Shown piece by piece: positions 17,998 to 21,625 of a stretch of DNA of 64,000 nt. This DNA is from a virus. Taxonomy: Duplodnaviria; Caudoviricetes. The DNA lies in IMG/VR virus record IMGVR_UViG_3300028886_000001; one strand, given 5' to 3'. Numbering within the stretch: the stretch's first letter is position 1; each line of letters opens with the position of its first letter. A model generated the notes under the pieces. The model did no database searches. It was given only the letters and a program-made list of their open reading frames with translations, and was not told the DNA's origin. A program made the translations under genes and the position numbers.

Positions 17998-19212
17998 ATG
18001 GCTGGTAAATTTATAAATACTAATCATCAAGAAACTATAGAGAATCTTATAAAAAGTCAAGTAGATCAATATAGAGCTCCATATTATAAACACCAAGACA
18101 AGCAATGCATATATGCTACTTATTATAATCAAAACTTAGATATGTCTACTCAAGATGAAGGTAGTGCATTACAAAATCAATTCATTGGTAGTGAGAGCCC
18201 ATTAAGATTTAATAAGATATATAACTTTTGTATGCTTGGAATGGAGAAAATATCTGCAGCATTAGAGAATGGTGAATATGGATTAGAATCATCTCCTATA
18301 GAAGGGGATTTAATAGTTATGCCTGATACTATTATACCTGTAGCTAATGATTATTTTATTATAGACCATGTACAACAGCATAAAGAACAAAAGAAGTTAA
18401 TATTTAAAGTAACACAAGTAGATGCTGATTCTCTAGATGATGGTTCTAGAGAATTCAAAGTTAGTTATAAACTAGATAGAGTTGGAGAAGAAGAAATAGA
18501 CAGACAAGTAGTAGAAGAGTATACTATGATTATAGATAATAATGAAACTCAATATAAATCTATAATAAAGAAAGTAGACTATGACTTAGTAAATGATTTA
18601 GGTGGTTTATGTAGAAATCTATGTAAATATTATAAGTCTCTATTCTATTCCCCTAGAGTAGATACATTTATATTTAGACATAATGGATATAATATGTATG
18701 ATCCTTATATGATAGAATTCTTAATAAGAAATGAAGTATTATCTTATGATGATGATTATCTATTCATAAATCATAAGTGTTCTAAACTTGCTACATTTCC
18801 TCTAGACTATAATAAGACTATATTTGCATTCTTAGAAGATAAAAATAGAAAGGGTAATCCTTTGATATATAGTCAAGGATTTCCTATATTAGAACCTTTA
18901 TCCGTATTTGATTGTAGAATGGAGCCTTATTTTAAGATAGAATATTGTAATGAAGTATTCGATAGAGGTAGAGGAATAATAAATAATTTCAATGAAGAAT
19001 TATTTGAAAGATGTAATACTAATACTTATTATTTAGAAGAAAAAGATAGGTATAAAAATGTGATAATACGTTACTTTAACAATGGCAAAATTGGAAAAGA
19101 TGATATATTAGATATAGAGTCCATGCAGTATAGTAATGATATTGAATTTTTTTATAATATCCCGATAATAATATACATATTAGGATTAAAAGTCGCAGAA
19201 TTAATGAAATAA
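17998..19212 (+). CDS. probable virion structural protein
   Basis: AAGGAGG RBS before ATG 17998; beta-rich N-terminal half; function not recognisable. Confidence 0.5.
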   Translation: MAGKFINTNHQETIENLIKSQVDQYRAPYYKHQDKQCIYATYYNQNLDMSTQDEGSALQNQFIGSESPLRFNKIYNFCMLGMEKISAALENGEYGLESSPIEGDLIVMPDTIIPVANDYFIIDHVQQHKEQKKLIFKVTQVDADSLDDGSREFKVSYKLDRVGEEEIDRQVVEEYTMIIDNNETQYKSIIKKVDYDLVNDLGGLCRNLCKYYKSLFYSPRVDTFIFRHNGYNMYDPYMIEFLIRNEVLSYDDDYLFINHKCSKLATFPLDYNKTIFAFLEDKNRKGNPLIYSQGFPILEPLSVFDCRMEPYFKIEYCNEVFDRGRGIINNFNEELFERCNTNTYYLEEKDRYKNVIIRYFNNGKIGKDDILDIESMQYSNDIEFFYNIPIIIYILGLKVAELMK

Positions 19213-19253
19213 CATATAGATAAAATTCTTATTAAAAAGGAGGAATTTAAGCC

Positions 19254-19379
19254 ATGATTGAAACACTAGATGATATAGCATATTTAGATCTTGTTGCAGA
19301 AGATGTAGAATATGCTATGGATATGAATTTTGGTATTATAGATGTAATAGCTGGAGAGGAGGAAGTTATAGATGTATAA
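19254..19379 (+). CDS. small acidic protein (41 aa; not in the ORF track)
   Basis: AACA-N6-TA promoter at 19211, AGGAGG RBS; MIETLDDIAYLDLVAEDVEYAMDMNFGIIDVIAGEEEVIDV. Confidence 0.7.
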   Translation: MIETLDDIAYLDLVAEDVEYAMDMNFGIIDVIAGEEEVIDV

Positions 19380-19740
19380 AATAGTAAATATTAAAACAAC
19401 AAGACCAATTAGAACAATAAGACCTGCTATACTTCAATCAGTAGAAGGTATAAAATTAACAGTAGGTGATATTAGAAGAGTAATATACTCTAGAGCTTTA
19501 GTAGATGAAGTATTATCAGATGGATCTACTGTAAGACTTACTTTAGATAACTATGATAAAGTAAATGAAAAAATAAAAGCACCTGTTAAGAAAGAAGAAG
19601 AACCAAAATTTGAAATGCCAGAAGAGGAACCAAAGGTAGAACAACCTAAGGAAGAAAAGAAACCACAAGTTTCTAATAAGCAAGAAGTTAAGCAAAATAA
19701 TAACCAAAATAACAACAATAAAAAAAATAAAGAGAGATAG
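19372..19740 (+). CDS. hypothetical protein with low-complexity E/K/P/N tail
   Basis: 122 aa; GAGGAGG RBS. Confidence 0.8.
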   Translation: MYKIVNIKTTRPIRTIRPAILQSVEGIKLTVGDIRRVIYSRALVDEVLSDGSTVRLTLDNYDKVNEKIKAPVKKEEEPKFEMPEEEPKVEQPKEEKKPQVSNKQEVKQNNNQNNNNKKNKER

Positions 19741-19760
19741 GTTAAATCCTATCTCTCTTT
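19729..19760. terminator. bidirectional terminator
   Basis: AAAGAGAGATAGG / CCTATCTCTCTTT with A and T tracts on both sides. Confidence 0.85.
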
Positions 19761-19872
19761 TCTATGTATTTTTAATGTCTCACTCCGATTGTTTCACCCA
19801 TTTTGGTCACCTCCAATCGGATATATTTTTATCAAATGTTTCACTTCCTTTCTTCTTATGTATTCTACTATT
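19729..19872 (-). ncRNA. candidate early small RNA or micro-ORF transcript
   Basis: early motif at 19873-19885 (-), terminator at 19729-19760, internal stem TCCGATTG/CAATCGGA, four GTGA-x(1-2)-CA repeats. Confidence 0.45.
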
Positions 19873-19942
19873 ATAATATATAATTATAATATCTTAGTTT
19901 TTCATATAAGAAAAGAGAAGGATAATATCCTTCTCTTATTTT

Positions 19943-21625
19943 TTAGAATTCTGGTACTCCTAATTGCTTCTCTGTTTCTGGTAATGCTAAAGTTAATGCA
20001 TATGCAGATTCTATAGCTTCTTTAGCAGATGTTCTTATATTCATGCCTCCTAAAGATACATAATGTGCTTTAGAGTTAGAATATTCTTTAAGTTCAGCAT
20101 TAGATTCATCAGTAAATGCTATCTTAGCTGTACATTGGTCTCCGTCATAGTCTCCTCCGATACCTTCTAGATATAGATTACATATTCTTAATGTATCTAC
20201 AAAAGAACTACTTGTATTAGTTCTTATATCTTCTTGCCTTATCTTTGGATAAAACTTATAATATTCATTACCTATAACCATAGGTTCTGTTTCTACAGTA
20301 GATGATACTTCTACTAATGTAGGGAATTGGTTAAAGTATGTATCCATAGGATAACGTGTGATTAATACATATTTGCCTTTTACAGCTTCTTTAGCAGCCC
20401 TAAATATTAAATCACACCAAGTTAAATCTCTATCTACTATACTGCTTTTACCTGTTAATTCTTTATCTAATTTTTCTGCATCACTTACATCTAATTCATT
20501 TAATCTTTCATTAATATGTCTTCCAACAAATCTCATATGTATTTTATACCCTTCTACAGATTCAACCTCTACTGGAATAAATCTATTAGAATAGCCATGG
20601 CAAAATCTATCTATTTCTTTTTTCAATCTAGCATCTGAGAATTGTTCTAATGGATCTTTTATTTGAACATTCTTTATACTTCCATCTTTATCTATCATTG
20701 GATACGATGCAGTACCTGAAAATTCATTTTCAAAGAAACGTCTTAAATAGAATATAATAAATGGGTATACATTACTACATAAAGATGCCAATGGTACAGC
20801 AGAATAGTCTAAGTTAACCATCATATCATCTACATGCTCTACTCTTAAATCTGGAGCAGATAGTACTAATCTAGATGCATAATCTGCTGTCTTAGACATA
20901 TTAGCTCTTCTTAATATACCATATTTCTTAGACATACCAGTACCATTCGAATCAGCATTTCCTGGCATTGAACCATCTACAAACCATTGATATATAGCAA
21001 GTAATGTTTCTTGTATTCTTCCATTAGTAGCATCTGATAAAGATATACCAAAGTCTTGTGTTTCTTTTTTACTCTTTACAGCCATTATAAGATTATCATA
21101 TAATTTATTTACATCTCCTAGAGAAACATAATGTCCATTATTGTTTACATCTCTATAATATGCTGGGATTACTATCATCTGTTTAATAAATAGCTTATCT
21201 CTAAATTTATTTAGATAAGCAACTTTATCATTATTCTTTATAGATGTAGTAGTCTTAAACTTAATCTTGTCTATATTTTGCTTTAAGAAGTTAATACCTG
21301 TTTTACCGTTCTCATCATCTACTATATTTCCTTTAGCATCTAATGACACCATTCTTTTACCATGAACTATATCTCTTACTCTTCCATCTATCGAATTCCA
21401 TATCTTATATGCAAATGGATGTAAGAACCAATCTGATAAATCTATATAAGCAAATATATTAGCTCTCTCTTCTTTAGTAATACCAAATATTTCATTAGAT
21501 AATAAACCATCATCAGTTGGTATTCCAGTAGAAGAGAAGTATATAGAATTTGTAATCTCCTTTAAATCATTAACCTTTATCAACTTATCTGGTTCTAAAG
21601 GTTCTATTTCTAAATATCTATCCAT
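19943..21625 (-). CDS. multisubunit RNA polymerase beta' subunit, N-terminal/catalytic part (probably virion RNAP)
   Basis: GLLSNEIFG, VIPAYYRD, TRYP and catalytic GGDYDGD motifs; late-type promoter at 21642-21653. Confidence 0.9.
   Translation of the reverse strand: MDRYLEIEPLEPDKLIKVNDLKEITNSIYFSSTGIPTDDGLLSNEIFGITKEERANIFAYIDLSDWFLHPFAYKIWNSIDGRVRDIVHGKRMVSLDAKGNIVDDENGKTGINFLKQNIDKIKFKTTTSIKNNDKVAYLNKFRDKLFIKQMIVIPAYYRDVNNNGHYVSLGDVNKLYDNLIMAVKSKKETQDFGISLSDATNGRIQETLLAIYQWFVDGSMPGNADSNGTGMSKKYGILRRANMSKTADYASRLVLSAPDLRVEHVDDMMVNLDYSAVPLASLCSNVYPFIIFYLRRFFENEFSGTASYPMIDKDGSIKNVQIKDPLEQFSDARLKKEIDRFCHGYSNRFIPVEVESVEGYKIHMRFVGRHINERLNELDVSDAEKLDKELTGKSSIVDRDLTWCDLIFRAAKEAVKGKYVLITRYPMDTYFNQFPTLVEVSSTVETEPMVIGNEYYKFYPKIRQEDIRTNTSSSFVDTLRICNLYLEGIGGDYDGDQCTAKIAFTDESNAELKEYSNSKAHYVSLGGMNIRTSAKEAIESAYALTLALPETEKQLGVPEF

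Follow-up and report, generated by a model that had tools for sequence, protein, structure and literature searches.

The DNA analyzed here is a stretch of 64,000 nucleotides (the window) from the complete 213,202-bp virus record IMGVR_UViG_3300028886_000001 of IMG/VR, which has terminal repeats and a G+C content of about 27%, and of which the window represents the minus strand. The phage encodes split multisubunit RNA polymerases (RNAPs) of the AR9/PBS1 kind, in two multisubunit sets. Between a gene for an RNAP beta-prime protein and a convergent late gene, the window contains a short unit with two very small open reading frames (ORFs), termed here ORF1 and ORF2. We consider it likely that this unit is a self-contained early gene, whose product is the 9-residue peptide Met-Gly-Glu-Thr-Ile-Gly-Val-Arg-His encoded by ORF2, a member of a conserved family of peptides of 8–35 residues. 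This family, for which a literature search found no descriptive paper, is a previously undescribed one of AR9-like jumbo phages from animal guts and bioreactors, and it appears in no annotation because gene callers and protein databases miss genes of 8–13 codons. From the conservation of ORF2 we infer both its translation and the role of the peptide as the functional product.

Counterparts of the micro-ORF in distantly related jumbo phages

About 90 loci around homologues of the RNAP protein (given here with the prefix L) were gathered from IMG/VR, Logan/ENA/JGI assemblies and metagenome contigs, and were read as 6.6-kb pieces. The RNAP protein relatives fall at either ≥99% or ≤60% identity, with nothing between 60% and 99%. 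At least 11 further lineages of AR9-like jumbo phages, all uncultured and with RNAP proteins 45–60% identical to that of the window, have a counterpart of ORF2, which in nine of them occupies the same position, directly past the virion RNAP beta-prime gene and under an early promoter. The common layout comprises the RNAP beta-prime gene, an early-promoter motif, a short unit with an ATG-initiated micro-ORF led by a Shine-Dalgarno (SD) site, and convergent late genes; the gene order of the window is repeated in L016/17, L026/27, L028, L037, L077, L079, L082 and L089. The early-promoter motif precedes the homologous micro-ORF in L016, L026, L028, L037, L077, L079, L082, L089 and L013. In L023-25 a distance of 1.2 kb separates the RNAP gene from the micro-ORF downstream, and in L013-15 it is found 2.6 kb away on the other strand, under an early promoter of its own. 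A further member, L106, was detected with a degenerate DNA pattern. In a quick tree of the RNAP proteins, the micro-ORF is present in all seven evaluable members of the clade that includes the window, and also in two other clades.

The peptides in our alignment (A2) are 8–15 residues long and start with Met-Asp-Asp-(Asn/Thr/Phe)-x-(Thr/Ala/Ser)-(Ile/Val/Met)-Gly. The N-terminal motif shared by the family can be described as acidic-acidic-x-x-Thr-(Ile/Val/Met)-Gly, and each member has its own start, stop and strong SD site. L037 encodes a 35-residue long form with the same start. A HMMER library search with this form as the query returned two close relatives from two further phages, in which it is conserved as a protein, and otherwise only two low-complexity matches. 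The ORF2 of the window aligns best with the peptide of L028, the residues Thr-Ile-Gly-Val being identical, and it has the ATG start, a length within the 8–35 codons, the strong SD site 6–9 nt upstream of the start, the early-promoter motif and the post-RNAP position that typify the family. An N-glycosylation sequon and an EF-hand-like loop were considered as readings of the motif and dropped, since by our own reading neither is common to all members of A2.

In a limited search of AR9 and Listeria phage LPJP1, the family pattern gave five one-mismatch matches, none of which is an SD-led micro-ORF, although absence from these phages is not thereby shown. A scan of 185,579 species genomes with an 18-nt invariant piece of ORF2, for signs of the host or of CRISPR capture, gave six matches, which appear to be random because they lie in unrelated phyla and have flanks that match at chance level.

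The post-RNAP position shows some variety among the relatives. In L016 (57% RNAP identity; also in L017), the unit extends over about 530 nt (L016:5705-6250) and contains at least four SD-led micro-ORFs of 7–15 codons, one of which is the family member. In L013 (L013:5636-5983) and L004 (L004:5690-6000), the post-RNAP early promoter drives a soluble protein of 101 residues and a membrane protein of 95 residues, respectively. Given these ordinary proteins behind the early promoter, the site looks like one at which early accessory genes are swapped.

Evidence for constraint at the level of the peptide

A hidden Markov model (HMM) was built from four relatives only, without the ORF2 of the window, and was compared with all small ORFs on both strands of the window's own genome (6–45 codons, three start codons; n = 8,669). 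Under this model the ORF2 of the window ranks first; its corresponding segment, Gly-Glu-Thr-Ile-Gly-Val, lacks two residues of the motif and has one acidic residue only, and the first rank comes with a weak E-value of 0.81. The chance that an ORF of the unit attains the top rank by accident is roughly 6e-4, given that by our count about five of the 8,669 ORFs lie in the unit. In a set of 27,723 small ORFs, the same model detects L023 with an E-value of 0.028.

The pattern of nucleotide differences across lineages also bears on the constraint. In the seven-codon core, pairwise differences at codon positions 1, 2 and 3 number 53, 31 and 89, respectively, and four codons vary at the third position only, whereas the 5' and 3' untranslated flanks of different lineages are unalignable. 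Between L026 and L027 there is a single synonymous change in the ORF, as against 22 differences in the next 117 nt. It is this cross-lineage codon pattern that favors constraint on the peptide over constraint on the RNA. Taken together with the counterparts described above, it leads us to conclude that ORF2 is probably a real gene under peptide-level constraint, and that ORF1, discussed below, is not.

Variation among closely related strains

From public assemblies of many studies, 29 near-identical contigs were collected, representing 23 haplotypes, to which an alignment of contigs adds three strains. The promoter, the cores of both ribosome sites (SD1 and SD2; Table 1), the stem of the hairpin around SD2 and both terminators are essentially invariant among these strains. 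The leader (19866-19802, minus strand), in contrast, has 12 polymorphic sites out of 65 along with a 4-nt and a 6-nt indel, as compared to 22 out of 475 in the nearby RNAP coding sequence, and hence evolves about four times faster (p = 2e-4). The changes in the leader are located in the two SD-to-start spacers and in ORF1, in strains that are otherwise about 99% identical. Within ORF2, a synonymous change in the Val codon is seen in 20 of the 23 haplotypes, and the only others noted are an ATG-to-GTG change of the start and, in one strain, a replacement of the final residue.

A fast-evolving leader between two terminators might also be viewed as a decaying remnant, with the early promoter and ribosome site of a lost accessory gene persisting without function. 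The ordinary ORFs of 95 and 101 residues that the equivalent promoter drives in L004 and L013, and the several short frames in the 530-nt stretch of L016, would fit such a history as well. We consider it highly improbable: the promoter, ribosome sites, ORF2 and terminators are intact across the 23 haplotypes from many studies, and the micro-ORF persists, with its own start, stop and strong SD site, in at least 11 lineages with 45–60% RNAP identity.

Ribosome sites, repeats and the hairpin of the leader

Duplex energies with the anti-SD sequence were computed against a Firmicutes-type 16S tail and ranked among those of 175 genes. SD1 has a duplex energy of -15.6 kcal/mol, which places it in the top 7%, and its core is kept in 22 of the 23 haplotypes while the spacer varies. 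SD2, at -17.9 kcal/mol and with optimal spacing, falls in the top 1.7%, and the common strain variant of it (-21.7 kcal/mol) is stronger than the sites of all 175 genes. The SD core is 8 nt upstream of the start codon in both ORF1 and ORF2.

The four SD-like repeats reported in the initial annotation are real in this strain, an 8-mer common to three of them occurring in three copies within 70 nt as against about two expected in the whole window. The first and second repeats are the ribosome sites of ORF1 and ORF2, and the third and fourth coincide with codons 2–4 and 6–9 of ORF2. Of the 23 haplotypes, 13 have a changed copy 1 and 20 a changed copy 4, and therefore the repeats themselves are not what selection keeps. 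A flanking 8-nt direct repeat (19864-19857 and 19770-19763) is conserved among strains, and by a rough estimate is within chance for such AT-rich DNA.

The 8-bp stem of the hairpin around SD2 forms with a pairing probability of 0.99 in every haplotype folded, and the fold of the body has a z-score of -2.8. The stem is invariant in 22 of the 23 haplotypes, the loop is variable, and a short inner helix re-forms in the variant. Its 3' arm consists of the Thr-Ile-Gly codons of ORF2. We found no secondary structure or RNA sequence shared across lineages; in most of them, the strong SD site is paired with an anti-SD-like segment, located either upstream or just past the stop codon, and in the latter arrangement the whole micro-ORF is enclosed in the hairpin loop. 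This recurrent pairing of the SD site, with the location of SD2 and the ORF2 start in the loop of the invariant stem, suggests either restrained or conditional initiation or the stabilization of a very small mRNA.

ORF1, the stop codon of which overlaps the start region of ORF2, shows a different pattern of change. All haplotypes have TTG or ATG as its start codon, the changes, at residues 3, 4, 11 and 12, are almost all non-synonymous, two codons are gained in one strain, and haplotype L116, a low-coverage contig, has a stop at codon 5. No counterpart of ORF1 was found in the loci of the relatives. These changes match the neutral expectation, and ORF1 does not encode a conserved product. The combination of conserved start signals and a freely varying body would fit a 5'-proximal ribosome-loading site, probably the only capacity in which ORF1 matters, although the truncation of ORF1 in one strain makes this a weak argument. 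Translational coupling between ORF1 and ORF2 was considered as the main mechanism and downgraded, given the codon-5 stop in the one low-coverage haplotype and the absence of the arrangement in relatives.

The elements described above have also been interpreted, in the initial annotation, as a GGA-motif sponge, a ribosome-decoy or an antitoxin-like RNA. In its general form this interpretation holds that the unit is a non-coding regulatory RNA, with SD-like or GGA motifs acting as decoys for the 30S subunit or a CsrA-type protein, or as a partner of the anti-SD sequence, and with ORFs that are incidental. Such an RNA would account for the extreme strength of the ribosome-site mimics (above all the SD2 strain variant), for the stable and invariant hairpin and for the pairing of the micro-ORF's SD site with an anti-SD-like segment in most relatives, and it would have a precedent in the short promoter-terminator units called small RNAs (sRNAs) in other jumbo phages (PMC11512511). 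It is nevertheless improbable in our estimate, given that the repeats on which it would act are not maintained, and that it is the peptide motif, with synonymous changes, rather than any RNA that is kept across lineages. Furthermore, an Rfam scan of positions 19000-20600 at a permissive threshold yielded only sub-threshold matches to terminator-like parts. The best match within the clan, to CsrC, has 11.9 bits against a gathering score of 61 and is confined to the terminator of the opposite strand, and no CsrA is encoded in the phage genome. Thus, of the alternatives raised in the initial annotation, the sponge or decoy is not borne out, and the micropeptide gene is retained for ORF2, conserved as a peptide across relatives and strains, and abandoned for ORF1, which is not conserved and is cut short in one haplotype. 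The conservation in related phages that it had proposed as a check exists for the ORF2-type frame, in at least 11 lineages, and does not extend to the sequence and structure of the RNA.

Promoter, terminators and the predicted transcript

The early-promoter motif at 19885-19873 is near-identical to the early (virion RNAP) consensus of AR9, which has been validated by differential RNA sequencing and primer extension (PMC5312081). Its 11-nt core is present in 40 copies in the 213-kb genome, most of them 45–140 nt upstream of ORFs and followed by N6-G. The predicted start of transcription, 7 nt downstream of the motif, is an A (19866) followed by G (19865), as against a G in nearly all other copies; one active early promoter of AR9 likewise deviates at the start point (PMC5312081). 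At the other end of the unit, the terminator hairpin spans 19760-19729 with its T-run continuing to 19721, and it is conserved in the strains and very strong, with 8 T in the run. The body between promoter and terminator is about 105 nt long, and the region has four terminator-like sites against 0.6 expected.

On reading the minus strand, the promoter, the terminators, the stem and both SD-led micro-ORFs were all found where the initial annotation had placed them. Its proposal of a stand-alone early transcript of about 140 nt is supported, in terms of predicted anatomy, by the promoter motif and the terminators, which point to a monocistronic unit. The insulation of this unit from the RNAP gene by the hairpin at 19937-19913 holds as well: it is terminator-like and kept in all 23 haplotypes, with changes in the loop and one G-C to G-U change.

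Other searches with the region were negative: no tRNA or tmRNA was found by a dedicated scan, blastn gave no match to deposited phages, and exact and gapped DNA patterns of the unit gave no match in IMG/VR. The intergenic DNA cannot be aligned with that of the nearest relatives because the RNAP identity of the latter is at most 60%.

Table 1. Features of the predicted micro-gene unit and its two neighboring genes, in window coordinates
Feature	Position	Strand	Remarks
RNAP beta-prime gene, 560 residues	21625-19943	-	PHROG match: RNAP beta/beta-prime subunit
Upstream terminator-like hairpin, 11-bp stem and T-run	19937-19913	-	separates the unit from the RNAP gene
AR9-type early-promoter motif, 13 nt, AT-rich	19885-19873	-	sequence invariant in 23/23 haplotypes
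Predicted monocistronic early transcript, ~140-146 nt	19866-19721	-	from promoter motif and terminator
SD1, strong ribosome-binding site near the 5' end	19848-19841	-	5 nt upstream of the ORF1 start
ORF1, 13 codons, TTG start	19835-19794	-	non-conserved upstream ORF
Hairpin, 8-bp stem (19821-19814 with 19791-19784), 22-nt loop	19821-19784	-	loop contains SD2 and the ORF2 start codon
SD2, near-perfect extended SD site for ORF2	19814-19807	-	invariant in 23/23 haplotypes
ORF2, 9 codons and stop, ATG start	19801-19772	-	conserved micro-gene
Bidirectional intrinsic terminator, 13-bp stem, T-runs on both strands	19760-19721	both	common to the 19372-19740 (+) gene
Convergent late gene, 122-residue protein	19372-19740	+	shares its terminator with the micro-ORF unit

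The stop codon of ORF2 is only 11 nt upstream of the terminator stem, and a ribosome terminating there would cover the base of the stem. It is conceivable, therefore, that the unit is a cis-acting leader in which translation of the micro-ORF sets the read-through of the terminator, and with it the passage of early antisense RNA into the convergent late structural genes. The short distance from stop to stem recurs in L037, L079 and L028 (about 9–18 nt, counted by eye), and nothing other than the antisense of late genes lies downstream of the terminator. Against this, over 100 nt separate the stop and the terminator in L026, L016 and L089, the folds offer no alternative antiterminator pairing, the terminator with its 13-bp stem and 8-T run is very strong, and a leader of this kind needs no conserved N-terminal peptide motif, so that we regard this explanation as unlikely.

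Proposed mode of action

Under the reading that we favor, an early gene for the ORF2 peptide, the injected virion-type RNA polymerase would start at the early promoter (at about 19866) and stop at the terminator, producing an mRNA of about 140 nt from which ORF2 would be translated into the 9-residue peptide. In Firmicutes, ribosomes bound at the 5' end protect mRNAs, as is known from work on mRNA stability in Bacillus. The strong 5'-proximal site of ORF1 probably loads a ribosome in a comparable manner, which would protect the tiny mRNA and/or melt the 8-bp hairpin at the start of ORF2.

As a working guess, the peptide may be a trans-acting early effector, involved either in host take-over or in the control of the phage's own transcription. 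The sole basis for this guess is its timing and the persistent linkage to the virion RNAP beta-prime gene. A more specific version, to which we assign a low probability, is that the peptide acts on transcription, for instance by inhibiting or modulating, in an early feedback, either the injected virion RNA polymerase or that of the host. Such action would explain the lasting proximity of its gene to the virion RNAP beta-prime gene across no fewer than nine deeply divergent lineages.

Several observations weigh against the favored reading. The peptide of the window is the shortest but one and the most divergent of the family, without the acidic pair plus Asn, and its E-value of 0.81 under the HMM is to be set, taken alone, on the negative side. 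The contrast in polymorphism between the leader and ORF2 is by itself not significant (p = 0.21). Moreover, the strain data alone leave RNA and peptide constraint on ORF2 unseparated, because the stem arm and the Thr-Ile-Gly codons coincide. At the promoter, the A in place of G at the expected start is found in all strains. The contigs of a single bovine-gut metatranscriptome run do not cover the unit, which is uninformative either way. Finally, nine-residue peptides are usually short-lived in cells.

Genomic context and other early units

About a dozen metagenome studies of the bovine and pig gut contain near-identical DNA. At the level of the 560-residue RNAP protein, the nearest cultured relative is no closer than about 31% identity. 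Its best counterpart in AR9, g145, carries the annotation of a virion RNAP beta-prime subunit (N-terminal part). The g145 sequence is joined from three pieces and is accompanied by homing endonuclease genes. Among the loci gathered here, the RNAP beta-prime homologue of L037, L079, L090, L093 and L095-L097 is in two pieces, or ends early and resumes 1–1.5 kb further on, a pattern suggestive of introns or inserted elements like those of AR9 g145. The late operon that carries the RNAP beta-prime gene of the window is ended by the hairpin at 19937-19913.

The 122-residue protein of the convergent late gene has a tail rich in Lys/Glu/Pro and Asn, and occurs in strains as a 119-residue length variant; the stop codon of its gene falls within the shared terminator stem. 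In the bovine-gut metatranscriptome run, low-identity AT-rich contigs match at 19694-19731, and one contig of 208 nt is identical to 19480-19687, inside this late gene. The phage, or its DNA, was therefore present in that RNA library. A plus-strand ORF of 75 residues (19789-20016) was rejected as a gene because differences in the length of an A-run among strains shift its frame.

Two further short early units lie on the minus strand of the same genome outside the window (G000:C1). At about 150,029, a stretch of about 130 nt accommodates an early-promoter motif, an ORF of 14 codons with an SD site, and a strong terminator. At about 157,325, the roughly 190 nt downstream of an early-promoter motif contain hairpins and a terminator but lack an SD-led ORF, and a second early promoter, for the next gene, comes after them; this unit is a candidate non-coding early RNA.

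Comparison with known systems

The closest parallels in the architecture of the unit are the early units of AR9/PBS1, which have a near-identical AT-rich 13-nt element with the start 6–7 nt downstream, in phages that likewise possess two multisubunit RNAP sets (Lavysh et al. 2017, PMC5312081). In AR9, however, these units drive ordinary protein genes, with no 9-codon gene annotated, while in the window a micro-ORF is found and the start base is A rather than G. In the phiKZ-like jumbo phage 201phi2-1, 11 short promoter-terminator units have been called sRNAs (PMC11512511), and in phiKZ, predictions of small ORFs were made but discarded (PMC8244752). Like the unit described here, these sRNA units are shorter than 250 nt from start to terminator and occur in jumbo phages with their own RNAPs, and one of them is conserved by position across genera. 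Their starts were mapped, whereas ours is predicted, and they have been read as non-coding and conserved as RNA structure, whereas in our case a peptide frame is conserved and RNA structure is not shared.

The smallest known translated genes include mccA, the 7-codon precursor of microcin C, and the leader peptides of 8–9 codons of the cat, cmlA and erm attenuators. ORF2 resembles these in having a dedicated SD site and start for an ORF of fewer than 15 codons, and a stop close to a hairpin. Unlike mccA, it is not part of an operon with modifying enzymes, there being no mccB-like neighbor, and its peptide has no terminal Asn. Unlike the leader-peptide attenuators, it has no sense gene downstream, only the antisense of 19372-19740, and the folds show no alternative pairing.

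The dual-function small RNAs of Firmicutes, such as SR1/SR1P and RNAIII/delta-haemolysin, encode peptides of 26–39 residues and have documented base-pairing targets. In the STAB-SD of Bacillus mRNAs, a strong SD site near the 5' end stabilizes the message, and need not serve a meaningful ORF. Features that the unit has in common with these are a short and structured predicted transcript under a separate promoter and terminator, a small ORF and a strong 5'-proximal SD site, but at 9 residues the ORF2 peptide is well below the 26–39 residues of SR1 and RNAIII.

In size, ORF2 recalls the signaling peptides arbitrium AimP and Phr, in which the final active species is a peptide of 5–10 residues from a phage or mobile element. 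These, however, derive from pre-pro-peptides of about 40 residues that carry a signal sequence, and their genes sit next to that of a receptor, whereas ORF2 has 9 codons and no signal sequence, and no match to a receptor-like family was found among the neighbors, which are an RNAP subunit and structural genes. The sponge RNAs CsrB and RsmZ are similar in concentrating several GGA-containing motifs in a short RNA, one of them in a hairpin loop. The unit differs from them in having four such motifs only, two of which are combined with start codons at optimal spacing and two of which are changed in most strains, and in the lack of a match to a covariance model. It also differs from minigenes of the lambda bar type, which have two to three codons, act through peptidyl-tRNA drop-off and place no constraint on the peptide, whereas the ORFs here have 9 and 13 codons and the motif of ORF2 is conserved.

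On the whole, the peptides form a new family within a known kind, that of very small translated ORFs. A broad clade of giant phages, common in the guts of cattle and pigs, has retained this family together with a dedicated promoter and a ribosome site of exceptional strength. If the 9-residue peptide is functional, its gene would rank among the smallest conserved viral genes known. If made, the peptide would be among the first products of infection, and would offer a compact, chemically synthesizable handle on the host take-over or early-programme shut-off of AR9-like phages. With regard to the short sRNA-like promoter-terminator units of other jumbo phages, the present case suggests that codon-level conservation should be checked before they are called non-coding.

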